A DNA stretch of 64,000 bases from Phoronis australis (Eukaryota > Animalia > Phoronida). The translations under genes and the position numbers were made by a program. The stretch lies in assembly GCA_002633005.1 (NCBI GenBank), contig NMRA01000106.1, forward strand, positions 863,338 through 927,337, read 5' to 3'. Each line of letters opens with the position of its first letter. Positions within the stretch are counted from its first letter, which is position 1. Under the pieces are notes generated by a model. The model was not told the origin of the DNA. It was given only the letters and a program-made list of their open reading frames with translations, and ran no database searches. Positions 6,201 to 56,500 of the stretch are shown piece after piece.

Positions 6201-9200
6201 ATTCTATTGCCTGTCATTGAACTGTAACAAAACACAAAATATAGAATCTAAGTACCTCATACAGACTAATGTCGCTTTTCTATCTTCCAACTATCAGCTT
6301 ATACAGCCAACATGATGAGCACTCACATCTAACAAATTTTCATCATGTTATTGATACCGTTGTTTTATTATCAATTTACCTTTGAAGTTTTTTGCTAAAT
6401 TTCATGAAAAAGACATAGTCACATAACCTAATTCATGACAAACTGGTAAAATGTCAAAAATCAAATTCTTTAGGATTTCTAATTTCAGGAAATATCCTTT
6501 CACTCAGTTAAAATCCATAATTTTGTATTGTAGAGATTTTGTTCAATACACATACTTGTCAATAAGGTCTGACAAACCAGCAATGGCTTGTCCATACGTT
6601 TTTCAAAGATGAAAATCTCTTAATACCCTGCCTTGTACTCACCTATGAAATAGTTGTGGCCAGGCTGGAGAAAGGTAGAGTTGACCTCAAATGCTTGTAC
6701 GGTCATAGAATCCACGACTGGAGTCCCATGCCCGAAACTGCAGGATGCGAAGTCTTCCTGTGTCACTCTGTACATTCTCATGGGACCCATCATTTTACTT
6801 GATTTAAATCTAAAAAAGCAAAAATGATATCACTTTCTTTCCTTAAATCAAACAATTAATCAGATACAATAGTACTTCATCTATTCACCACAAAATACGA
6901 AAGACAAAAATTTTGCCAATCTTTCTCAACAAAACATCTATTACGAACTTGGTTTGAGAAATAGATAAAAGAAAACTTAGGCAATCATTTTTTGCGAAGA
7001 GAATCAACAACTACTGGAACCTGGATCGATAGTGATCACCATTTCAAAAGTATTCTGGCACTCACCTAAGAGTTAGACCTTGTTGTATTTCTATGGGGAC
7101 CATCTGAACCAATGTCGGGTCATGACCATGGTCACCCGTGACACCATAACATGTCTGTTGGTTGAAGCAGGTATACTGTAATAAGACAATCACAAATTAA
7201 CACACTTGCCATAACTATTACGGTAACCACTTTTCCCTAGTTCAAAAAGTCTAAAGCAAGTATTTATTTAACATTTGTAGCACTTGACTGTTGAGCTTAG
7301 TTCTTGTCAAAGAATCAAAGCGATTACTAAAGCTATTAGCTGCCTAGTTACATTTTTATGATGTGAAAACACAGCAAATAAAGTATTTAATTTTAACTTT
7401 TTGCGTCACCGGTATTGATATAAAAAGTGTTCAGCAGCAGGCCGCAACCCCCTTCAATACTAAAGCAAACATTTTGTACACGCTGGAAAATGGCAAGAAC
7501 TGTGAATGATCCCCAATACGCTTTTGAAAAGCATTTTATGGCTGAATTATGCGGATAACCCAGAAACCCATATGAACATTGTTTCATTATCCACTTATAT
7601 CAGCAGTAATTACCCTAGGCGAATACAATATTCTTTCAATGAACCTTTAATTTCTTTATCTACCTAACTTACTAACAACAACGGCCTAATATAAATTGAC
7701 TTACGGTTAAAATCAATTTCTACTTTGTCAAGGCGGAATTCACTTACAGGATCTTAATGAAAACCTATTGATTAAATAAACTGACAACATGTTGAAAGCC
7801 GAGCAATAACCAGGGATGTCTGCAGTAACTGGATCACGCAAAACGAGCATTTTCAATGAATCCTTAAAAGCTTCATAAGTCACCTGAATTTCACTGTGAC
7901 CAACAACCACCACCAGGTTTGAAATGTTGTTCAGATGTAATAACTTTCAAATAAACAATCATGTTTTTAGTCTAGATACAAAAATAAAATTTTTTTTGAC
8001 AGATGGATTTCAATTTCATCGCTTACAACTTAAAGTTTTTAGAGCTCATATTCATGTTTATTGTTACAAAACCTTATTGCTTTATCCTAATATAACCTTA
8101 TTGCTGCCTTGTGCTCTCCCATTTCACTGTTCTGGATCATTGTCTTTTCACATAGTACTTAATGTTAGTTTACGTAGATTATTTGAACGCAATCGATTTC
8201 GTTTAATTCCGACTTGAATGTCAGAAAAGACACATTTGGAGTATTGCCATTTTTTTAGAATATACAGACATTAGCAACACGGTCACACCATGTTGAGATC
8301 TGAGACCGTTTCCAGCTTATTACTTCTAAGTAGTGATTACGGAAGACTCACAAACCAGACAAGATAATTATTCAGTCACAGACAAGAACCTAATGAGAAT
8401 GATGAATAACCTACGGGAGTCATTATCACTTACAATGATCAATAACTTATGGGAGCCATTATCACTTACAATGATCAATAACTTATGGGAGTCATTATCA
8501 CTTACAATGATCAATAACTTATGGGAGCCATTATCACTTACAATGATCAATAACTTATGGGAGCCATTATGACTTACAATGATCAATAACCTATAGGAGT
8601 CATTATCACTTACAATGATCAATAACTTATGGGAGCCATTATCACTTACAATGATCAATAAACTATGGGAGCCATTGTCACTTACAATGATCAATAACCT
8701 ATGGGAGTCATTATGACTTACAATGATCAATAACCTATAGGAGTCATTATCACTTACAATGATCAATAACTTATGGGAGTCATTATCACTTACAATAATC
8801 AATAACCTGTGGGAGTCATTATCACTTACAATGATCAATAAACTATGGGAGTCATTATCACTTACAAGAATGTTTTCTGAGCACTTCACATCTAATGAAA
8901 TCTTGAAACTAAACTAAACTGCATGGAAAATAATGATGTACAGTACTTCCCAACTTATAACTGAATTTACCAGACAGTGAGCAATGAATGGCAAAAACAG
9001 CTAAAAGAAAATCAGCACATAACTGCTGTAGCACTTTCAATTTTCAAAAGAATTTTACATGTGATTCATCACATTGTAGACTTTAGGATGATTGTACAAG
9101 TCTGTCTGACAAAATTTGATCCATAATGTGCAACTAAAGTCATAAACAACTTAAAAAGAAATCCAATTACTAGTATATATTTTCAAAATTTATTTAAAAC

Positions 9201-13714: not shown

Positions 13715-31367
<17,653 letters not shown>

Positions 31368-31497
31368 ACTCGTCTTGCTGGGTTGAGATCCTGAGAATCA
31401 CTGACGAGTGCTTGCTGCAATAGCTGCGTCGATTTTCATCGATGTCGCAGAACTGACGAGTTGAATGAATGTGTGAAGACAGTCTCTGGCAGTCAGT

Positions 31498-33264: not shown

Positions 33265-36200
33265 CTACATGCCGTTGTAAGCCGGTCCTTCTCCACCTTG
33301 TGGACACACCCAATTGATGTTCTGGCTGGGGTCTTTAATGTCACATGTCTTACAGTGGATGCAGTTCTGTGCGTTGATCTGCAGCCGCATTCCACCGTCC
33401 TCCACTTCTACGTATTCATACACGCCTGAAAACAAGAATGCATAGCCATTACATAATTAACGGATTAGCTTCATTCCCTGGCATGGTGGAGGCCACTAAA
33501 CCAAAGGCAAAACAATGACTGTGACCGTTAAGTGAATGGTACACAAATGCCAAGTGCCACTAAGCAACCATAAACCTCCCAGCTTCCGTCACATAAACAT
33601 TTGTCTTTTGATTTAGAATACTCACCACTACAAAATTGGTCTCAACATTTTCCACAGTCAAATTAGAAATTATTTCTTGGCATGAAACGAACTCTCAGTG
33701 TGCTATTGTTTGAGATCAGGTTCCATGAGTCGATTAGTCAAAGCAGATCATTTTTGTACAGAGCATAGTCTAAAGCTATATCAAACTGTCAATTCTTTGC
33801 AAACCCAGAAATGATTTCTCAATAAACAAGTAGTTTGAAAAAATAGAATATTAAAATTAACATGGGTTTATAGCTACAGCAAAAAAGAATATTGCAGCTG
33901 GAAACTAAAATCAAATAGGCAAGTCCAGAAATATCCTGCTTCATAATTACATTAAAATAAACAGATAGCATTACAACAGTCAACTTTCAAATATACCTAA
34001 TAATGCAAGAGACACCACATAATTTAATAAAACTCAAACTCAATAGGCAGAAATCAGTAAGAGTCTGATTTACATCATTTTAATTCAATGAATAAGGCAA
34101 ACAATCACAGTGAATTATGATGGTAAAAGACCTTCATTTAGTATTTTCTTTTATCCAAGAAGAAATTTAGCATATTCAGGTAGCAGCCTACTAATTGACC
34201 TGTATGACCACCATTGCTAATGTTATATTACCTGCTGGGCAAAACCTTTGTTCTGGGCCATCGTATATGGCAAGGTTGTTATTAACAGGAACATCATCGT
34301 TCTTCAGTGTGAGGTGGGCTGGTTGATCATGATCATGATTTGTGCCTGTTAGTGCCACGGACGACAATAAATCAAAGCTAATTTCACCATCAGGCTTGGG
34401 GTAGTCAATCGGTGTACATTCTGAAGCAGGCTTCAGCTTACTGGAGTCTAATTCTGAAAAAAAGGAAGATAGTGGCAAATTGATTCCACAAGCTGTAAGA
34501 GGCATTCCAGTCTACATCCTGCAGTCTACAAGAAAGAATTGGCCTAAATTGAAACTCACAGGCTGACGTAATTCCTCAAGGTGTCCATCTCTAAGTACAA
34601 TACTTACCACCGTGCTTCTCTAAGAGAAAGAAGTAACTTCAGATACAGTGTGATACCTCAGTGAAAGCATGATCAGAGTCAGTGTTACAGTCAAATTGTA
34701 AAAAGCTGTATAAGGAATGCTATTAACTTAAATTCTCAGAACACTGCAATTTGTGGTTACATTTAGTTGCTGCTCTCTGTCCATGAACGCAAAATTTGGT
34801 AAAATTATTACCAAGCATGGTCAGTGATTGTAAAGAGACAAAATCAGAGAGAATACCTTTGTGCCTTAATGTCCATGGTTCCTTTCCTCGTAAAAAGCAG
34901 TAGAATATTCCAGTATAAAGAAGTCCACCGTATAGCCCCAAAGGACTGTCGAAAGATGGACGAACGTTGCGAACCGACTTCAGCTCTTGCCACACCCAGC
35001 TGTTTTGCATATTTGTCGTGTAGATTTCAGGATTCAGGCCAACTAAAAGATTTTGAAAAAATTCAGTACGTGTAAAAACAAGCAAATGTTTTGAAATAAT
35101 GACGATGACTCGCACATTATTAAGGGTTTTGGACAGGAATTGATGCAAGTCACCAGTCACCAGTAGAACTAGCATAACTTTTCTCAAAAATAGATGGATG
35201 AATTTTGGGTGGTGTTTCGTACACCAAAGACAATCAAGACTATGTGCTTTGCTTGAAATGCATGGCGATATCGTAAATTTTCGCGAGTATTTTTGGGTCT
35301 ATGAAAAGCAAGTTTGACCCTAATGTCACAGCAACACACATATAATGTACACAGCATGTGGACAAATGTCATAGCACATGTTCAAACAATAGCTAAACAA
35401 TACATTGCAATATAATGCTTATGGCAAGTATGTTCTAGTTAGCTCTATTTCCAAAGTTCCTTCATTATTTGTGTTCATTGATCATCGAAAAATATTATTG
35501 AAGTTGGTGCAACATATCTTTTATTGAAAAAATGAGAAAGTAAAATTTCATATCATGTCCTAAATTGGTGAAAATTGACCGTGATCTCCAAAAAAGAAGA
35601 CTAAGTTATTCACAACCCAAGAAATACAGCCAGAGCTTGGGTTGCTTTGTGGTTGTTTGTGTCGTTATTTATGGTGTAGTTTTTATAACCAAGCAGAAGC
35701 ATACAGGACTTAAAAAACCTTGCTTGTAAAGGGTGTTCATTTCATGAAAATAATTCCAAATGTCCTCTACCCTTATCTGGAAGTTGAGTAGTAAAGCACA
35801 AAGATAAAACGCTAATTTAAATGCACATAAAATGCCAGCACAAATTAAGTTTTAGAGGTAACATTAATAAACTTGACTATTATGTAGAGTGCACCTGAAC
35901 TCACCAGNTTGGTGAATTGTCAGCGTGCTTGTTGATTGTCTCATATACACTCTCAGCTCCCACAATGCCGCTCTTCATTGCATTGTGGGTACCTTTGATC
36001 TTGGGCACGTTCATGAAGCCAGGACTACAGCCTATTAGGCAGCCTCCAGGGAAGGTAAGTTTGGGTATAGACTGAAACACACAAAAGGATGACTAAATCT
36101 GAAGTCTGTAGCTTAAGGTAAGGGAGTACGCTGATATACTATAACAAATAGATTGAATCTACCTGAGGAAGCACCAAAGCCAAATGGTAGACAGTATAAT

Positions 36201-39200
36201 TATCAAAACATCCAGTTTTAAAAGACTGTTGTGAGACAAGAATAAACAGCAGCACATGCTAAGTTAAGGTAGATTCACAACACGTTCCTCAAAGAGTGAC
36301 TTCAACAGGGGAGGGAGTGACCCCCGGGATGTCACTGATATTAATTATTAACCTGGAAGCCTCCCTCATTCAGTGCTAACAGTGAAGGGAGTGACCCCCG
36401 GGATGTCACAGATATTAATTACTAACCTGGAAGCCCCCCTCATTCAGTGCTCTGGCTCCATACGCTATCCTCTTGCCACCTCGCAACACTTTCTCCACAG
36501 ACGGGTGGTGCTTGAACTTCTGGAAGGTCTTGAATGGATTGAGGTAGGGATTGCTGTAGTCGAGGCCAACCTGATGTCAAAGGTCAAAGAGCATGAAAAT
36601 GAAGGTCACAGCTGATTGGTCACATCAGATAACAAGTTAGCTTCTCACCATTGATTTCCACAGCAAAACCATTTAAGTATTAGAATTTTGAGGATAATCT
36701 AGTAAACAGGAATGTGCCATTGCCAACTAAAGAAAGAATATGAATTAAAGATATAAAAGGTGAATTTTGAGGATATAGATACTTTTAGCAAAGTAATCAA
36801 TGCATTAATCTACTGATTGTATTATAATTTCCATGAACAAGATTATGAGAAATTGTTGTGCAACCACAACATCATCTAAATTGTACAGAAATTTATAAAG
36901 TTAACGAAATTTCTAATGTTCTTAGGCACATGTACAATCAGTTACTCAAAAGCATTTCATGAATCCAAAACACACATTAAAGTGCCTTGCTACATACCAC
37001 CATGCCTATAGCAATGAGCGGCGCACCTTCACCTAAATGGTACAAGAAAGAGCCGGCGTATGTGTTCCTGTCCTGTGAACAAAGCATGCATGTTATGCAT
37101 ACATTCTGACAATAAAATATAAAACAATACCGTAGAATACACAAGAACATGAAGTGTTCAAGAGACTCACAAAAGAACATCACAAAAATTAAATTACATG
37201 CCGCAATTAGACGACGAATTGTCAAACATAAATTTTAATCTTACTGTCAAAAAAGTTCAAATGCTATACTTAATAATTCTAAAATTATCATAATGTTTTA
37301 CTAAATCCTCTAATATGCTGAGGTTGGGGAACTTGAAAAACAATGTTTTTCAAATTTTTAAACTTCAAAATCAGAATAAACGAGCAATGTTGCTGATCTA
37401 GAAGAGTTAAGTCATTTGAGAAGAAAGTTGGCATTCCAACATCAGAAGATGATTGACAGTGACTTTAACCAACATAAAAAAAGAAATCAGTCCTCCATAA
37501 GTTTTGTTCCTCACCACAGGCCATCCCACTGTGTGTTCCACTCTCCCTGGTTTGTGATTGGCTGGATCTATTTCCCATACTTCCTTGAAGCCAATACCGT
37601 AAGACTGTGGATCACATTCGTCACGGAGATTGAACTGTGTGTAAAGCTGTTTGGCTAGGTGTCCATGGCAACCTTCAGAAAACATGGTGACTTTGGCATG
37701 TAGTTCCATTCCTCTCTCAAAAGTGTCCTGCAGAGAGATTAAACACGTGCTGAATATTAAAAGCCAGACAAACTTGTTCTTAACTCACATTTCAAGAAGC
37801 AAGTAAACATATATTTTCATCAAGCTAATAACTTCCACCAGCCATTTTGGTCTTCCACAGGCGATAGATAACTTCAACACACATAAAACCTTATCTGAGT
37901 CACACACCACGAAGACAATTGCTAGACACATTTGGACAAATCTGGCTAGTGCGGTATGATTCTGCAATGTTGTACATCTTTTTGCAAAAGATTTACATAA
38001 AAAATGACAGTCATTTTCTAAATAAACTTGAAAATACAATTTCAAAACAAAGATAATTTCTACATACTGTTTTTAAACTATGTTGAATTTTTTATGTAAT
38101 TTAGAAGTTGATATCAATTTGTCTTGGCTCCATACACTAAAATTTGCTATATTCGCATAATATACTAAATTTACAGAACTAATGAAATGCAACTTTAAGA
38201 CGAGAAAAAAAGCAAGCCTGAATCTCTTGGTTGGATAAAATAACGTCTGGTTGGTCTTTATTACTTAGCTTTATTTTACCTTAGGAGCTCCGTCTTTGTA
38301 TATTCCCACATCATTTGTAGCAATCCCTTTCACACTGCCATCCTCATGGTACAAAACCTGAAAAACAAGCCACATGTATTTTATGAAACCATTTTTACTG
38401 GCCACCGAATCTACATAATTCCAGATTTTAAAACATTTAAATTTTTGCCAGAGAAACATAATTCACCACTATGGATATAATCATTCAGCATGATTGTAAT
38501 TTTGGTGATAACAGAAAAATAGAGCAAAGATTTGAATAATCACAATTTTTACATTAAATTGTATAATATGCATAATGAACAGAAAACAGTAAAGTTGTGT
38601 GACACTTCACATGAAGTAAAGTAACAATTTTAAAGTAACAGAAGATCATATTTCAACAGATCTTGGCGTATTAGTTACATAAAAATTTTGACACTGAGCC
38701 ACGATATAAAATATGTCTCCAGTACCAGCCAGGATGTTTACCAATGTGGTACATTTGTGACCATAGCAGAAACACCGGCTTTATTTTTTCAATTTAAAGC
38801 TTCACAGAACTGAATTTAACTAAGCTTTGCTCACCTCAGCTGCCGCAGTGCCAGGGTAGACCTCTACACCTAAATTTTCTGCCTGCTCACCTAACCATCG
38901 AACTAAGTTCCCAAGGCGTACAATGAAGTTACCAGTGTTGTGCATTGGGAAAACTGGAATAAAGAAACAAAAAATTCTCAAGACAATCTACATGACCTAG
39001 AACTGAACTTAAGGTTGGAGAGGGACTAGGAATCAGTAATATGTCAATGATCTCAAGTTTGACAGTATTTTTGAAGATTTTGAAAAAGTAGCTTTACCCG
39101 TGTTCAGCACCACTTCAACAAAGTCCCTAAACGACTAGGGAACCGAACACAGCGAGGCAATAAACAATAACTGCAATATGAATTACCAGCAACACGCCTC

Positions 39201-45030: not shown

Positions 45031-47061
45031 ATGGCGACTGCCATTGATTTCGAATCCATTATTCGCAATGCAAGAGTGGACAATGCTGTGAGATCTAGAA
45101 CAAATTTTGCGTCGATTTTTGAAAAGGTATACAAGATTAAATCGTTTGAAATGCTCTAGTCAATGCCTAATTCTAATTTTATAATGTATCAACAGTGGAA
45201 ACGGTGAATGTTCAGTGACCAGTCTCACTCTACCTCTGTGGGCCTGTGGCTCACAGGCGCGTGCTCATGTCACGAGCGCGACAAACTTTTGTTACTATAG
45301 GCAAACAAATGATATTCATTAGATTGTTTTTCACTCAAGCGGCTGCAGCCTGCAAGGTGAGTGTTGATTGACTCCTAGATTTTGCATGCGCCTGCTCCAC
45401 TCGCTAGCTACATGTTTCACGTGACCGAGGTGACGAGCAGAACTATACCCGGGCTGTGGGAAATTTCGGGGATGTAACGGAGCTCAATAACGCAGTGCTA
45501 CCAAGTTTTATTTTTGCGAGTCTTTTCACAGCTAGCTGACCGGTTACGTCATAACCCGCAGTATCGTACAAAGGCCTTGATAACTACATTTTGTCCGGCG
45601 GTCATGTTCAGTCCCCGGCGGTCCTGTTTTCTGGTGGGGCGGTCATGTTTTTATATGCGTCAGTCCCATTTTCTGGTGTGACGGTCCCATTTGATCCCCG
45701 GAGGTCCTGTTTTGGGTGAGTCAGTCCGATTTAGAGGACCGGCGGTCATGTTGTTTCTTACTTAGGCAATGACCATCGCCTCTGTTGGCCCGAACCAGAG
45801 GCGATGCAGACCCTATAGGCGCTCTGTACGCCGGAAGCTTTTCGGCGAATTATGCCTCGCACCGACTAAACCATCAAAGTCACGTTGTTATAAATACCTT
45901 TTGCGCATAGAGGAACACCTTAGGAGGTTGTCGATGTGTTAAATAATTTAGCTTACTAAAAGAAGACTGTTGTTTTTAATGATCACTAATTTTGCGTCAG
46001 ATTTTATCTTGCCACTTTTTTACCCACATCGGTTCAAAGTTGTATATTTAGTAATACCAAGGCTACCTCTGGCTCTGTCTTGGCGCTGCTTTCTGCCGGT
46101 CTGGAAGTTGAAACGTAACACAGGCAGACGAATTTCACATCGACTGGTTACCATATAAGAAACATACATGTCTTTTATTTGAGTTAGTGTTGGTACCAGT
46201 GGCAGATACGAGGAACAGATAAACTCGTGGGCATGTGTTCTGAAATAGCCCATCCCCACCCCCGGTTGCCCCAATCAGTACCAATAGTCAATACCCCAAT
46301 CTGTCCAACCTCCAGCACCACCCCTAATTTACAATAAATTTGGCATTGATTTCTTTTGTTAATGTGGTCCTGTTAAATGCTGGTTTTGTAGTACTTTAAG
46401 GATTAAAAAGCTGCAAGGCAGATAATGGAAATTGATTGTTTGTGATGATTCAATATGCTCTTTATTACAGTATGATCGTGAATTTCCTGACAGCGACGAA
46501 ATCAACTTAAGTGATTTTTCTATCGTTAAAGATCGAGGTATGTCTCATTGAACTGTTCTAAAATCATCATTTGTAAATGGCATCTGCTCATCTGCTCATT
46601 CCCCTGAACAACAATGATTCCAATAGAACAACACAATTCCTGATAGACGTTGATACTATGGCACCATAGGCTATTGTACATGGACCGCCAACTCTGTATA
46701 TTTTCAAGGGACGAAATGTGTGATCTTACGCATAAGTCGTGATGTCATTATTCACTAGCGACACCTGGCAAAATTAGCAAGTTTTACTTCTGGCATGTGC
46801 TAATCATAGTCAGCTGTTGTGTGGTCATTTGCTAAAAGTACTCATGGTACCAACAGTTCTATTATTGGAAAACTCTGAGCAGCATTTCAATGCAGACATT
46901 TTTTTTTTCATTGTACTGGACAGTTAAGTAAATGCTAGAATTTTTCGTCTCAATACACTAATTAATATTTTGTTTTTATTAAATTAATTTTTATTATTAC
47001 CTCAATTACATTGATTATTATCACTGTTGTTGTTATTATTATTATTATTATATTATTATTA

Positions 47062-47092
<31 letters not shown>

Positions 47093-48526
47093 TAGGCCAT
47101 TTGAAAAAGATCAAGACTCAAAGTTTTGGTCACAGTCGACTTGCCGTGGAGAGAAGGAGAGGTAGAGTCATGAGTTTACAGTTAAAATTTTATGTATAAA
47201 ATGATGTGTCCAAGGTCACTACAGCACTGCATAGTTATACGACCTCGAACTACGTGGTATCAATACAGCTGAATTTCTCTATGAGTTCTGAGGAATGTCC
47301 ATGTCCTTCATATTGGAATTATGGAGAGAAATTCAGACACAACTAGGTTGTTTAATGGCACTGCACTTAATTAAAACTTTGTTGCTCGGTCATCATTAAA
47401 CATTTACTTAAAAAAAATTTTGGAAATTTGTTTTTGTCAATATGCTTGATGCTGATATCATGTTCATGCACTTTTAATGTTTACAAAGGTTAGACAGACT
47501 CTATTCACATTTTGTTTTCATGAAACAACTGCAGTTAAAGTCTCAACGATTTTGAATAAAAATATTGCCCTTATTTGTTTTTCAGGGGGTTTGAACACTG
47601 TTGCAAATGCCCAAAATTTCTTATTTAAAATGTTGTCGCATGGTAGCTATGGTACATAACTTGAACTTAAACAAATGCTCAAGTAACCAGTCCAAATATA
47701 GTAAACATACAGCACAACAGTCATCAAACATACAGCACAACAGTCATCAAACATACAGCACAACAGTCATCAAACATACAGCACAACAGNNNNNNNNNNN
47801 NNNNNNNNNNNNNNNNNNNNNNNNNNNNNNNNNNNNNNNNNNNNNNNNNNNNNNNNNNNNNNNNNNNNNNNNNNNNNNNNNNNNNNNNNNNNNNNNNNNN
47901 NNNNNNNNNNNNNNNNNNNNNNNNNNNNNNNNNNNNNNNNNNNNNNNNNNNNNNNNNNNNNNNNNNNNNNNNNNNNNNNNNNNNNNNNNNNNNNNNNNNN
48001 NNNNNNNNNNNNNNNNNNNNNNNNNNNNNNNNNNNNNNNNNNNNNNNNNNNNNNNNNNNNNNNNNNNNNNNNNNNNNNNNNNNNNNNNNNNNNNNNNNNN
48101 NNNNNNNNNNNNNNNNNNNNNNNNNNNNNNNNNNNNNNNNNNNNNNNNNNNNNNNNNNNNNNNNNNNNNNNNNNNNNNNNNNNNNNNNNNNNNNNNNNNN
48201 NNNNNNNNNNNNNNNNNNACAACTAGTTCTTGTCTGTCAATCATCTAAGTTCTTAACAGGTCCTCCTGGAGGCAATTTGTTTGCAAGTGTTGGATTTTAT
48301 ATTTTAACCTATTAAAAATAATTAAAAAATTATGGGTCATTGGTTGGAGAAATAAATGAAAAATATGGGCGGTGGGTACGAAATAAAAGTGCCTTCCCCC
48401 CCCTCCCATACAGATTTTGCTGGAACAGCCCTAATTAATATTTTGTTTTTACTAAATTAATTTTTATTATTAGCTCAATTACATTGATTATTATCACTGT
48501 TGTTGTTATTATTATTATTATTATTA

Positions 48527-48563
<37 letters not shown>

Positions 48564-51500
48564 TAGGCCATTTGAAAAAGATCAAGACTCAAAGTTTTGG
48601 TCACAGTCGACTTGCCGTGGAGAGAAGGAGAGGTAGAGTCATGAGTTTACAGTTCAAATTTATGCATAAAATGATGTGCCCAAGGTCGCTTCAGCACTGT
48701 ATAGTTATTCGACCTTGAACTACATAGTATCAATACAGCTGACTTTCTCTATGAGTTCTGAGGAATGTCCATGGCCTTCATATTGGAATTATGGAGGGAA
48801 ATTCAGACACAACTAGGTTGTTTAATGGCACTGCACTTAATTAAAACTTTTTTGCTCAGTCATCATTAAACATTTACTTAAAAAAAATTTTGGGAAATTT
48901 GTTTTTGTCAATATGCTTGATGCTGATATCATGTTCATGCACTTTTAATGTTTACAAAGGTTAGACAGACTCTATTCACATTTTGTTTTCATGAAACAAC
49001 TGCAGTTCAAGTCTCAATGATTTTGAATAAAAATATTTGCTGAAATTGCCCTTATTTGTTTTTCAGGGGGTTTGAACACCGTTGCAAATGCCCAAAATTT
49101 CTTATTTAAAATGTTGTCACATGGTAGCTATGGTACATAACTTGAACTTATGCTCAAGTAACCAGTCCAAATATAGTAAACATACAGCACAACAGTCATC
49201 AAACATACAGCACAACAGTCATCAAACATACAGCACAACAGTCATCAAACTTATAGCACAGCAGTCAAACATACAACACAACAGTCAAACATACAACACA
49301 AGAGTCGTCAAACTTACAGGCTCAACAGTCATCAAACATACAGCACAACAGTCATCAAACATGCAGCACAACAGATAAAGTTTGAGTCTAATACTAGAAA
49401 AAAACTTACAAAAATTAGTGACGTTGCGTCCGCATTTCACGGACTTCAGCTTGGCTTGTGACGTTAGTGTTATTCTGGCTAATTGGTGGTGTTTTGACCA
49501 GATGGCGTGGCATTGACGCCAGAACACCATCCCATACATGTGACAAATCGATTCTGTCCCTTTAACTAGGACAACGATGTTGTGACATCTGCATTTTAAT
49601 GGACTGTTTCGTTTCACCTAACTGTCAGCGCTGGGGATCCTTACACTGAACACCATAGACAACACATGATTTATTACCCTTGGGGGTCTTGTCCTTGACA
49701 TTAACCAGTTAGCTGCGGAGAGAATTAAACGGTTTGTGGATGATAGAAATGTCAAACTGTTCAAAATGTCCTCTTGAGGCGGTCAGAAAGACCTGATAGA
49801 CTCAAACTTTATCTGTTTTCTGAACTTGATGTCTCAAAATTGTCATGCTTTTATACAGCACAACAGTCATCAAACAAAGTAAACTGTTTCTCTGTCATGA
49901 CAACTAATTCTGTTAAATGCAAAAATAACTGGTAATATCCATTTTGGTGGTAACGTTGTAATTCCACAATGACTTAGCGGCCTTACTAACACTCCACCTC
50001 TGTTCCCGCTATTGTCGGTCATGAGGGAAGGATTTAGTGGAAAGTGTTGAAAATGTCATAGTGTTCTGAACATTGATCACATTAATGATTTTGGCCAAAG
50101 TATCAGTACTAGTACAGACTTCAAAATCGGCGCATATGTAAACAAAAGACATTTTATGAATCGACGTGTACCTGTGCAGACTGTTCTCCACCTGTGTTAC
50201 CTGAGTGGAATATTGAGAACATTTGTCTTGGGAACGGTTTAGTGACAATAAACCGAAACGTCGATTAATTCAATGTCTTTGTTTACATAGGCGCTGATTT
50301 TGAACTTAGTACTGAACACGAATCTACATATGATAATGAGAATTGTTTTGCTTTGGCGTATCTAGAGACTGAGGTTGGCATGGACACCTTTTCAAATGAT
50401 GATTGGAGCTTTGTAAATGCAACTGTTGTAACTGCTTTTGCAGATCTTAGTCATCTTCTACTTGATGTTGTGTCTTTGGACTCGGACGAGCCAGATACCT
50501 CTGAAGACATTTGTACTACAGGTACTTACATGGGTGATTTTTAAAAATTGAACAAATCAATAATTAGGGGGTGAGCATGGGTATTTAATTAGAGACTTTT
50601 TGAGAAGTTGGACAGATTGTCAATTTGAATGAACACCCCACCACTACCTTTATGTTAGACTTGTGTGCAAAAATCGAGTGAAAATAGAAGAGTTTTGAGT
50701 ATTTGCCTTCCAAATAAGTTTTGGTGCTGCTGAACTGACTGTCTATCAAATGTAGGAGAGGTCTACGTTTTTGGAGCTAAAATACAAGTGGGAAGAGTAT
50801 TCACAAAGGTATGGATGCTTTAAAGGGAGTCCCCGTTGTGTTAAGTTGGAGTGAGAGTGGGTGTTTAAGAGTGAAAATTTGGTATTTTCATGGGTGGACG
50901 TAAGATAAACATAGGTATTTACTTGGACGAGTGTGGTGGATTGTACGCTCAGGTTTGAATTAATTTGTTTAATCATTAATTTTTGAAAATAGTATTAGAA
51001 ATTGTTATTTCATGTAACTATCTACTCAAGCTTAATACTTACCGGGTGATTCCACAGGATTTTCTATAACTCTTATAGGAAGACTATCCTAGTGTTTCCT
51101 CATCATAAAGGGACAAAAACTGAAGTCAACTAGACTAACAAATTGAATGGATGCCTGGGTCACTTGATATATTATTTGATGGATTTAAACTGGCTTGACA
51201 AATTTAGATGAAACTTTGTTTTTCTTATCCTGAGGATTGCAGCACCCCCTTGTGGCTATTGTTTACAAAACAACTAATAACCAACATGCCGTCATGGTAA
51301 TGCTTTGCTCCTCTCCTGTTTGAATGCTGCACAATGTTGTTATTGTCTTAATTATCTGTATTTGATTACTAACAATGCCCAAGAAGACGACACCAAAAAT
51401 GGCGTACTCACACAGACTTACCCTAGAACAAGTTACACCTGCAGCGAGTTGTCACTCGGTTGAAGTGCTGTCTGGACAGTATTTAAAATAGTGCGCTTTA

Positions 51501-53500
51501 CCCCTCTTGTGACAACTTCACACATTATTGAGGTGGGGTAACGTTTTCTAGGGTACCTTGCACTACTTGTTGTTGCTGTTTGATCACAAAGGTGGGGTAG
51601 AGCGGAAGTAATTATCAGCTGGGGTTACATACAGACGGGTTTTCGTTTGCGCTCTGTGCTGGCATTAAGTGTTCATTGCCAATGACAGAGTGACAACTTC
51701 CGCCTTACCCTAGCTACCGGATATGTTTTGTGTGGACACTCCACTCTGAAGCGGGGTAAGTCGCACTAGTGGAAAATGTTTTGGGGCAGACTGTGTGCAA
51801 ACAGGACTTTAAACTTGCCAATGTCAATGGTATGTTTGTTTATTATTAGACACTATCACCGACAATAGTGATGCTGACGATGATGCTAGGTCCAGTTCAA
51901 GTGAACTAGACATCAGTGGTGAGGAGAGCGATGGCGATGCTAGATCCAGTCCAAGTGAGCTAGACAGGGGTGGTGAGGAGAGTGATGATGATGCTAGGTC
52001 CAGTCCAAGTGAAATAGACAGGGGTGGTGAGGAGAGTGAAAGTGATCTTAGGTCAAGTCTAAGTGAGCTGGATGGGGATGATCTGGGGAGTGATGGAGAT
52101 ATCTCGGATGTGTCATCATTATATGAGTGTGATTCGGCGATGGAAGATAAGTAAGTTAGTTAGCCATTATGTGGTCATCGTTCAGTCATTGCAGAACAAC
52201 CATTAGCCTCTAAATGTACATTTTGTACTGAACAGATGTCATAAATTTTGAGTTATGAATGTTTTAACAATGTAAGCAGCCTTTGGAAATATGAAAATGA
52301 CAATTTTGGCATTTGTTTTCGCATGAAATTGAACTGAAGTTATTGTACCTGTTTTGTAGAAGCGGCGAAGTATCTTCTGGTTGTGAACTGCTGTCCGACA
52401 GTGACGATGATTACTCTGTTGTAAGACCGACACATCAAGCCACAACTGATATCAAACGCCCCAGCAGTCACAAACACATGTCAAGTCAGTCAACAGTCAG
52501 TGGTGGTGACAAAAAAGCTCCTACGTCAGACTTAGAAATGTCATCTAATGTGAAACATGAACAGCATTTAGAGAAGTCAGAAAAGTCCCATAGTGAAGTC
52601 ACAACCATAGAAAACTCTGTGCCACCTGCTGACTTTGGTGTGAATATCAACCTGGAAATGAGCCTCGATCCTCTGTCTGTTTTTTACATGTTTTTCAATA
52701 ATTTGCCGTTAACACCAAAGCACAATAAGAGGGATACAAATAAAATTGAACGACCTCCCATGACACCTGGCAGACTGCTGTCTCCTTCGCAGCTCATGGA
52801 CAAATTAAAACTTTTTTCTCCAAAAAGTTCCAGGAAGATAGCTTCTCCATTGAATTTAAACGCTCTTTCTCCCAAGAATTCCTTGAAAGTTGCTTCACCA
52901 TCACATAAAAATGGTCATGTTTTAAATGGAAGTTCCAAAAAACACCAAGAGAATGTATTTCAGAGCCAAGGTTTGGACATTGCTGAAGCCTCAAATTGTG
53001 ATGATGGAGTGAGCAAAAGTTTCCAGTATTCTGCTCGAAGAAGATTACTGGAAGCGCCATCTGTGGCCTTGAGTAGCACACCCTCGAAGAAAGACCACCC
53101 TACTTTGGAGATCAGCTCAATTTCATCTATTGAATCGCACAGTATTACGTCTTCAAATCTGCATAACTCAGTGAAGGTATTTCACATTCCAAGTGCTGCC
53201 CAAAGGGAACATTCAAAACCGATCGGCATTGTTTCCGGTTACAGGAACACAAAAAACACATTGACGCTTAGATCTGTAAACAATTGGCCACTTAGAATGC
53301 AGTGTAGTGCAGAGAGGCCAGTTGGTGTCGGGCGAGTGCCAATCTATAGACAAAATGTTCAGAAAAATTCAACAAAACGATTCAATCCATACCCATTCAG
53401 TGAAGACAATGATGTTGAAGTCAAGAATCAAAATAATTCATGTCTTGGTCCAGATAGGTGTACTAAAGCTTTCTGTTTCCGATGTTTAAATGACCAGTGA
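45031..53500 (+). CDS. Scm3/HJURP-family CENP-A chaperone (putative), ~582 or ~633 aa
   Basis: Exons 45031-45126, 46471-46537, 47096-47161 (duplicate 48567-48632), 50444-50521 (or 50291-50521), 51850-52150 and 52360-53500; phases 0,1,1,1,2 are all compatible. N-terminus MATAIDFESIIRNARVDNAVRSRTNFASIFEK|YDREFPDSDEINLSDFSIVKDRG|HLKKI matches the Scm3 signature F.sIfeKY...F...DEIdL....IV.D.GHL. C-terminus CLGPDRCTKAFCFRCL. Confidence 0.85.
45592..45752. repeat. Degenerate ~20-21-bp GC-rich tandem repeat, ~8 copies, intronic
   Basis: GGCGGTC(A/C)TGTT / CAGTCCCATTT variants recur at ~21-bp spacing. Confidence 0.65.
47033..47092. repeat. (TAT)n microsatellite (second copy ~48506-48563)
   Basis: About 20 TAT units directly before the exon-3 acceptor TTTAG. 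Confidence 0.95.
47704..47789. repeat. 23-bp minisatellite (also ~49178-49372 and one copy at ~49853)
   Basis: AAACATACAGCACAACAGTCATC units running into the N gap. Confidence 0.9.
48219..48431. mobile_element. Right end of a probable PIF/Harbinger-type MITE
   Basis: Ends ...CCCCCCCCTCCCCATACAGATTTTGCTGGAACAGCCC followed by TAA; absent from the other copy of the duplicated segment; the left end is hidden in the gap. Confidence 0.5.
51410..51770. mobile_element. Degenerate non-autonomous DNA transposon remnant
   Basis: Multiple TTACCC(C) / GGGGTAA(GTCGCAC) motifs in both orientations, typical of subterminal repeats. Confidence 0.35.
51876..52095 (+). repeat. Coding 54-bp (18-aa) acidic/Ser tandem repeat x4
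   Basis: DDDARSSSSELDISGEES DGDARSSPSELDRGGEES DDDARSSPSEIDRGGEES ESDLRSSLSELDGDDLGS in exon 51850-52150. Confidence 0.85.
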
Positions 53501-56500
53501 TTCATGGGACATTAATTTTTTTTTGATTTTATGAGCCAACTAATATTGCCCGACTGAGAGTTGTCCGTTTTTGGCTTGAAATGATAGTTTCTAAACAAAG
53601 AAATCAATACCTTTTATTCCCATTTCGTAAATTTTACTGTCTGCACTACATATTGATAAATGCTTTTCTCGTTTTACAAAATTTTGTTGACCTAAGGTGG
53701 TGCTCTTATCGTCTGCGCATTCTCTTTAAGCTGATGTAAACTTTCCTTCTATCAAAAAAAACTAAATTTAGGTCACTTACCATTGTGATGGTTTCTCACT
53801 CAGATTAGAATTTGTGGGCGTGTCAAAAACTGACGTCATTCCTCAAGACCAGATTCAATAAATTGGCTTCACCAGGAGGGCTCTTTTATGCACCGAGCAA
53901 AGCCTCAAATAATAATGATATGTCGGCTCCTCCATAGTGCAGAAACCACTTAATATAATATGAGTAAGGAACAAGTGGAGACCTCTTGTGTGACTGCAAC
54001 ATAGTCAAAATCATGAGTTAGTGTCTAATGGTTGATGGTGGGCATTCAACAGCTGCAAGTCGTGCTAGGTTGGTGTATGAAGTTCTATAGTGGCGAGGAA
54101 TAGTTGGACTTCGTGGAAAAATTCTCTATTGAAACTTGCACTAATTAAATTAAATTAAATGAGATACTTATAAATCTTGACACCTTATTGAGATGCGTTG
54201 GTTAATCTGAATCCTATGAAATGAAATTTCATTGAAATCAGTGCAGTTGGACTTTGTGATGCGAGATTTGTTGTTCTATACTTGAACATTTTTATGATTA
54301 TGTTTACGGTTATTGTTATTCCTGAAGTGAATTATTTGTTTTTTCCAAGACATTAGTTGTGTATGAATTGAATTGTTTTCTTTTGCACTAATTTCAATTG
54401 TTTGTGTTATTATTGTGTCATTATAAACTTTAATTGAATGTGATGTTGAGGTTTTCTCAGATTTCATCTAGGATATTTTTGTATGCGATTGAAGTTTTTA
54501 ATTTTAATCAGAGCCATGAAATGTGTTGATCAACTGAAGAAAGTGAAAATGAAGTAAAATTCACATAAGGCGGGTCCTAATAGAGCTAGAGTTTATCCAA
54601 GTGGAATGCACAAACTAGAACAGTGGTGCCATAAAACTTGCGACTGGAGAAAAAATGACTGGTGCGAATTTTACTGTAGCAGTGGCAGTATGCCACTTAA
54701 CTAAAAAACTTGCTAATAAAAATAGGGGACAATTTGTTTGAAATGACAAACATATATTTTCCACTATTAGAGAAATGTAATGATTGTAAAAGCCCCGTGA
54801 AGTGCAATCTTTGGAAACCATTGTTTGATTCGTGTTTCGGGGTGTAACTTTTGATTTTGTTTCTTTAATACAGCCAGTTAGCATTCTTTATTACTCATGC
54901 TGAAATCACATGCCAAATGAAGTTCATTAATTACTTGAATATGATTCAGTCGCCAACTCAAGTTATTCAAGTTAGAAATCTGTGGTTTCATCTCAACTTA
55001 ATTAGTGCCGTCCTGGGAACAATAACTTGGTCATGTTTGCCGTCAAATGACTTGTTATAAAAGTTTTAGGGTGTTCAACACTACTGAAACAGATCTGCTC
55101 CAAAGTTAATTTTACTTGAGACCCTAAAAGTAGTTGTTTTCTGAAAAAGTCTGATGTAGCTATGAGGCGAGGTCAAATCAAAATTGCCATTTTCTAAATG
55201 AGAATACACCAACTTTGCAGTGAAAAACACAATTTTGAGACGAAGAATATAACTTTTAATTTGAACCTCTTGCCCCAATAAAATTGATCTTGACTTAATC
55301 ATTACTCAGATGTGCCACGGTTTTTGGCGATGAATAAAACGAGACACAGTCATGTGTCAACTTGTACAACATTGTCTCATACAATAACAAACATCTTTCC
55401 AAGTTCAGACACTGTAACCATTTTGACTAAAGGAACAATTTTAGATCAATTTTATGACAGTAAGTTGGTTTCTAATGTGACAGAAGGTGGCTGTAACCTA
55501 CTTGACAGTAGATAGGGAACGGTACCCATGATGGAGAAATATTTCAAGGATGGCCTAAAATACAAAAATTGCATACAAACTACAATGTATACTTTATTAA
55601 TAATATTCAAATTACGGTTGATGGAATCCAAGTGTTTGAGCAGAGTTGACATAAAATGATATACAAAGTATAGAAACTACTGTTAAAGCAAAATAATGTT
55701 CTCTACATCAAATGCACGCCAGTTCACACAGCACATCACACCAGCAATAACTTTGTGGCCATTTCACAGCACCGTACCTGTGTACAGGCAAAAGGATTTC
55801 TGCAGTCACAAGTAAGACGAATATTCTTTAGTTTTAGAATATTAACAAAACTATTAAATACCCACTGCTTGTTCAGTAAAGACTGAATTAATGTATGCAG
55901 TTAAGACTAGCATTTTAACATGTTAGACATCAACAAAATATCTGTACATAGTCACTTTAGTTTGTTACAAATATTAATTACATCAAAATATGCATAAAAA
56001 ACGATGCACCAGTTCCAAGGAGTCTCTCCAAATACATACAAAATAACTTTAGACCGACACAGTCAATATTCGCCACTGTTGACCATATTAAGAATGCTTT
56101 AGTCACCAGTTGTGGATTCACAAAATTGAACAAGCGGTGAGTAAAATTCAGTTTTGGAATATTTGTGGTTTAAACTCTAAATAGCCATTTATTTGCAACA
56201 TTCAGGAGCTACCTGTAAGTTTTTTTGTAATGGCACACATGTTTACTAAAATTAGAAGGTACTAGACAAGTATTGCTGAAAATTCACACTTCAGAACTTT
56301 AGGTAAGTACCACTATATTGTCTCTATGGTGCTTTGGCAATTCCCGAATCAGCAGCAGACGATCTTCAATTAGACACCATTTGGGGCCATTAGATTGTAA
56401 AACATAAGTGGAAAATATCAACTAAGTGTTTACAGTTAGTGTAATGGCAGTCACTTAGTCATATAAGATCAAAAATTCAAAAAACCCTACTCTACAGCAG

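Follow-up and report, generated by a model that had tools for sequence, protein, structure and literature searches.

The locus described here raises the question of whether the cysteine-rich C-terminus of an animal Scm3-like protein was inherited from an ancestor shared with fungi, or arose independently. In S. pombe, the cysteine-rich domain of Scm3 reportedly binds zinc, and is said, in the title of a 2024 report (Folco et al. 2024, doi 10.1093/nar/gkad1182), to ensure centromere targeting. This domain has been studied in fission yeast. The gene lies within 64,000 nucleotides of the genome of the phoronid Phoronis australis (contig NMRA01000106.1, positions 863,338 to 927,337 of the forward strand); the whole of this stretch is called the window below, and all positions refer to it. 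As judged from sequence comparison, the gene belongs to the Scm3/HJURP family, and its product ends in a variant form of the Cys4 tail known from fungal C-termini, most likely through shared ancestry.

Gene structure, transcript and family assignment

Six exons with GT-AG borders join in phase into a frame of 582 residues with a single, terminal stop (Table 1). Three raw RNA runs with the same species label were used, about 18-19% of each being sampled, together with a fourth run (X4, contigs), which contained none of the splice joints. Four of the five joints were seen in RNA reads. The joint between exons 2 and 3 is absent among those listed, and a masked repeat (47014-47098), which was skipped, overlaps its acceptor; the phase, the same-strand coverage of both exons and an scm3 profile crossing the junction speak for a probable joint at this place. 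As the last part of the scm3 domain is encoded by exon 3, the reads tie that part of the domain directly to the tail. The original prediction would have failed if the last exon belonged to another transcript. RNA reads connect exon 6 back to exon 3, the step from exon 2 to exon 3 being deduced as above, and a separate transcript for exon 6 is therefore ruled out. The last exon is covered by stranded reads from three of the four runs, and coverage continues through the tail into the 3' untranslated region, where poly(A)-type hexamers occur at 53857, 54144 and 54154. At position 52704, RNA has C and the assembly T in all 24 reads, from three runs; the change, from Leu318 to Ser, is probably an allele difference.

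Table 1. Position of the Scm3-like gene, its tail and neighbouring genes in the window.
Feature	Position	Strand	Evidence
Exon 1, coding part (aa 1-32): scm3-domain helix, ends at K of the KY motif	45031..45126	+	24 reads across the joint with exon 2
Exon 2 (aa 33-55): scm3 domain, Y of KY and the acidic/hydrophobic strand	46471..46537	+	Pfam match, stranded coverage
Exon 3 (aa 55-77): last part of the scm3 domain	47096..47161	+	fungal scm3 profile, stranded coverage
Exon 3, second, identical copy in the duplicated block	48567..48632	+	14 reads across the joint with exon 4
Exon 4 (aa 77-103)	50444..50521	+	joints on either side
Exon 5 (aa 103-203): short acidic repeats rich in Ser	51850..52150	+	joints to exons 4 and 6 in 18 and 12 reads, composition
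Exon 6, coding part (aa 203-582): 8 S/T-P sites in low-complexity sequence, then Cys tail and stop	52360..53500	+	frame, RNA reads
Cys4 tail, C564-x5-C570-x4-C575-x2-C578	53441..53485	+	match to the fungal Scm3 C-terminal motif
3' untranslated region, end approximate	53501..54250	+	same-strand depth drops after about 54220
RPB1, heptad repeats at about 30500-31367	about 14200-31370	+	one exon compared with PDB
Electron-transfer flavoprotein dehydrogenase-like exons	about 34190-37800	-	recognised by eye

Both copies of exon 3 are carried by an 844-base block duplicated across a gap of N (47790-48218). Tandem blocks 90-95% alike flank positions of N at 23212-25175/25177-27147, 46958-47789/48431-49264 and 43007-43393/43412-43798, duplicating exons of RPB1 as well as exon 3 of the Scm3-like gene; they are probably two haplotypes joined by the assembler. 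Since a similar duplication flanks N in RPB1, the duplications of exon 3 and of RPB1 exons are probably assembly duplicates. One RPB1 exon scores 172 bits against chains of 1970 residues and 82 or less against those of yeast length, which marks the window as animal DNA. Elsewhere in the window (8398-8867), a tandem repeat with a period of 36 bases and about 13 copies contains an open frame on the minus strand.

The N-terminus of the protein has an scm3 domain with the KY motif and the downstream acidic/hydrophobic strand, as expected of the Scm3/HJURP family. With exon 2 alone, the match to Pfam Scm3 (PF10384) is short of the curated cut-off (E 0.0025), whereas a profile built from 72 distinct scm3 domains of fungi matches residues 11-63 with 36 bits (E 2e-13) and spans the junction of exons 2 and 3 without a gap there. 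The domain is at most 40% identical to the fungal rows and, by eye, is like the invertebrate rows in Data S1 of a survey of HJURP across Metazoa (Hollis et al. 2026, PMC13322267). In the part of that survey used here, animal orthologues outside tetrapods are established by a predicted complex with their own CENP-A/H4 together with reciprocal best search, and the scm3 domain is treated as essentially their sole common feature. The invertebrate proteins presented there resemble ours in the N-terminal scm3 domain, the KY motif and the acidic/hydrophobic strand, as well as in a mostly polar remainder, and the length of 582 residues falls inside the range given for them.

The terminal cysteines and their fungal counterparts

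The protein ends in CLGPDRCTKAFCFRCLNDQ* on the plus strand, with four residues between the last cysteine and the stop. The TGT codons of the tail are at 53441, 53459, 53474 and 53483, and the TGA stop is at 53498-53500; the first spacer has five residues, beginning with Leu. Four of the nine cysteines of the whole protein are thus within its last 19 residues, and the last 60 residues hold only these four, the next cysteine upstream being residue 518. A terminal C-x5-C-x4-C-x2-C motif following a long disordered stretch, as predicted, is indeed present, and the region before it is of low complexity. No Pfam family was found for the tail, and the Pfam search of the last exon returned no RING, IBR or FYVE family. 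RBR, RING and FYVE domains have about eight ligands over 40-70 residues. The fingers of the RBR (ARIH1), RING and FYVE types share with the animal tail the local element C-x3-F-C-x2-C; however, the tail has only four cysteines, standing alone at the terminus, in place of about eight metal ligands in two sites. With the nearest further cysteine as far away as residue 518, the possibility of a RING remnant was rejected.

Fungal loci were gathered from metagenome contigs by a pattern of the N-terminal scm3 core alone, so that the tail was not used in their selection. Two of the 102 loci found (L001 and L040) were removed as noise, and 55 of the resulting 100 could be judged, the other 45 being too short. 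All six loci tested pass Pfam Scm3, and one cluster member bears the name "Centromere protein Scm3". The motif C-G-x5-C-x3-F-C-x2-C, with 1-9 further residues before the stop, occurs in 19 of the 55 judgeable loci, with 16 distinct tails. It shares one uninterrupted frame with the scm3 domain in 15 of these 19, and is in a downstream frame, presumably beyond introns, in the other four. No tail is present in 36 loci (22 distinct), although a long downstream stretch is, and a six-frame profile scan of the fungal loci gave no additional tails. Therefore, the cysteine-rich terminus attributed to fungal Scm3 in the original prediction is real, but it is not general. We infer that the tails collected here are the published CYS domain of S. 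pombe.

Two further features were observed upstream of the fungal tails. In L010, L016, L037 and L065, which supply four of the five tails of one fungal clade, an acidic stretch with a V/I-I-I-L/E core, resembling a SUMO-interacting motif, is located 10-15 residues before the first cysteine; a weaker acidic-Val stretch is found in a similar place in the window protein (residues 552-557). In 10 of the 16 tails (L005, L008, L042, L052, L056, L058, L068, L080, L006 and L047), though not in the window protein, the first cysteine has a T/S-P-G/S-G motif eight residues upstream of it; this could be a kinase site beside the zinc module.

A profile of the 16 distinct fungal tails, from which the animal sequence was left out, has a sole match in the 582-residue protein, at residues 569-579 (14.5 bits, E 1.1e-6). 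The window yields 2,883 pieces in six frames, of which the tail ranks top, with 15.1 bits against 8.0 for the next, and a profile-profile comparison over 14 columns gave a probability of 96.4 (E 1.3e-9). Residues 569-578 are the same as in the tails of L010, L037 and L065 at nine of ten positions, and C2-x4-C3-x2-C4 with Phe before C3 is invariant in all 17 rows (16 fungal plus the window). The matched stretch comprises 11-14 residues, and the local match does not reach Cys1. In each of the 16 fungal tails, Gly follows Cys1 and the first spacer has six residues, whereas neither applies to the animal tail; for this reason it is considered a variant and not a plain member. The distance to the stop is four residues, compared with 1-9 in the 16 fungal tails. 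Alignment to fungal Scm3 C-termini had been set beforehand as the test, and the motif does align. As expected in the original prediction, the tail independently supports the Scm3 assignment.

The real score was not reached by any of 5,000 shuffles of the whole protein or 20,000 of the tail. With the four cysteines fixed, it was reached by 0, 1 and 0 per 20,000 in three compositions, and by 3 per 20,000 when Cys and Phe were both fixed. Outside the tails, the fungal loci (931,550 translated residues) gave a top score of 10.4 bits, and the best single stretch among 177,635 PDB sequences, from ARIH1, scored 12.9 bits, below the animal tail (E 0.0035 for ARIH1 when three stretches are summed). It should be noted that 11 of 95 viral and prokaryotic stretches selected by pattern reach 14.5 bits, so that the score alone is no proof of homology. 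The animal-spaced pattern was found at 32 viral and at least 120 prokaryotic loci (the latter from 42 of 64 parts of the contigs), and none of these 152 ends a long frame or has an scm3 domain. The case for homology is therefore made by the score together with the position, namely the final 20 residues of a protein with an scm3 domain, which had been specified in advance.

Shared ancestry and its alternatives

The animal and the fungal tails probably share ancestry. Their two modules occupy the same two ends of the protein: in fungal Scm3, as in the animal protein, an N-terminal scm3 domain is followed by a long low-complexity middle and by a four-Cys motif at most 10 residues from the stop, and nine of ten core residues of the animal tail are those of three fungal loci. 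The animal protein differs in its host, its six exons, its C1-C2 spacer (five residues vs six), the missing Gly after C1 and its dissimilar middle. Convergence would instead imply that a zinc knuckle of the generic kind that makes up half of RING, IBR or FYVE-type fingers was recruited independently in the animal lineage, and that it looks like the fungal tail through the C-x3-F-C-x2-C common to such knuckles. It is true that the only PDB matches of the fungal profile are fingers with C-x3-F-C-x2-C (ARIH1, TRIM21 and a FYVE-RING protein), that the animal tail weakly matches the RNF4 RING (E 0.038), that the first half of the motif departs from the fungal tails, and that the tail is so far known from one animal. 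Nevertheless, we regard this possibility as unlikely, considering that the animal tail scores above every single PDB stretch, that the non-Cys residues agree beyond chance even with Cys and Phe fixed, and that no further RING or IBR ligands are nearby. In addition, a chance gain would have had to hit the terminal 20 residues of a protein with an scm3 domain, and none of the 152 viral and prokaryotic pattern matches forms the tail of a long frame.

Other animal carriers were sought in several ways, each of them weak for a motif of 15 residues. The last 50 and the last 40 residues of exon 6 found no animal relative among near and longer proteins; the whole last exon had no match at E 0.001 among 1.84 billion representatives; and an alignment of exon pieces gave 44 candidates, none of them at E 10. 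The ESM Atlas had no usable match for either the animal or a fungal tail. A second animal carrier was not found, which, given the insensitivity of these searches to so short a motif, does not demonstrate absence. None of the titles and abstracts returned by literature searches describes the tail in animals, although Folco 2024, Sanchez-Pulido 2009 and Aravind 2007 may bear on its novelty; nor is it described in the passages and term counts taken from PMC2697330, PMC6677171, PMC13079627, PMC13017519, PMC11185503 and PMC13314379.

Granting homology and zinc binding, the tail could still serve another role in the animal, e.g. in dimerization or with a nuclear partner that has nothing to do with centromere targeting, or could be a dispensable relic. 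The tail is missing from 36 of the 55 judgeable fungal loci, and is therefore dispensable in many lineages; the conserved Gly has been lost in the animal; and lineage-specific C-terminal modules are reported for vertebrates, flies and Caenorhabditis in the part of the survey used here (PMC13322267). However, all four cysteines and K-x-F-C-F have been kept beside a middle of 490 residues without similarity to the fungal middles, which argues for selection on the tail and makes this explanation quite improbable. Acquisition of the gene or of its tail from a fungus is highly improbable: near-identity of the tail core to one fungal clade (L010, L037 and L065) speaks for it, but the introns are long and spliced, the gene is expressed in RNA runs of the same species label, the neighbouring RPB1 exon is of animal type, the middle is unrelated to fungal ones, and the scm3 domain is not nested among the fungal rows with support and looks like the invertebrate rows of Data S1 (PMC13322267); fungal contamination was likewise rejected.

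Shared ancestry thus being the preferred reading, the question is how old the tail may be. Mapped onto a phylogeny of 38 scm3 domains, the presence of the tail requires six changes, three of which are imposed by branches with good support; the resolution of the tree is poor, the window row is a long, unplaced branch, and loss and repeated gain are not separable on it, the distribution being consistent with repeated loss. The proposal that scm3 domain plus tail is the ancestral architecture of opisthokonts is partly supported, by fungi and one animal. As a tentative scenario, to which we give somewhat less than an even chance, the CENP-A loader of the ancestral opisthokont would have had an scm3 domain and a Cys4 zinc tail; many invertebrates would have kept the tail and would use it to arrive at centromeres, whereas vertebrates, flies, nematodes and many fungi would have exchanged it for lineage-specific modules.

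Possible function and significance

By analogy with S. pombe, the tail is likely an ancient zinc-binding and centromere-targeting module. The four cysteines would very probably bind one Zn, forming a small knuckle followed by a helix; that the tail also targets centromeres as reported for the yeast is a conjecture that we favour slightly. In the proposed mechanism, the scm3 domain would bind CENP-A/H4, as is known from related chaperones, the low-complexity middle, acidic at first and S/T-P-rich further on, would be a flexible linker under phosphorylation control, and the Zn knuckle would help the chaperone to dock at centromeres. Outside the lineages that retain it, the tail may have been lost repeatedly; among fungi, too, several gains or losses have evidently taken place.

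Like the protein studied here, vertebrate HJURP has an N-terminal scm3 domain and a presumed role as CENP-A/H4 chaperone; it differs in the HMD-adjacent motif and the Mis18-binding R2 region, which are common to vertebrates and missing in echinoderms. Human HJURP is not known to have a terminal Cys cluster, and the tail may, as originally proposed, be a recruitment module unlike that of vertebrate HJURP. The occurrence of both modules in an animal suggests an origin before the split between fungi and animals for the histone-binding end of the chaperone and for its targeting end as well. The tail provides a second handle in the search for "missing" orthologues and a small module for probing the recruitment of the CENP-A loader outside vertebrates. 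If it were ancestral and widespread, it would serve as a second homology marker for the whole family, overlooked until now, and would suggest that fungi and animals share an ancient centromeric receptor.

Structure predictions from the single sequence and from 17 rows were of low confidence (mean pLDDT 58 and 54, respectively), and searches with Foldseek and VIA-align gave no match, which is uninformative for such models. Upstream of the tail, residues 484-563 had no match among PDB chains (best E 1.3), and neither there nor in the comparison of the middle with fungal middles was a Mis16/RbAp48-binding segment recognised. Within the middle region, the eight S/T-P sites are clustered in residues 321-443. 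The stretch that immediately follows the scm3 region, encoded by exon 5, contains three or four copies of an acidic unit of about 18 residues, rich in Ser, which might be a histone-binding acidic tract.
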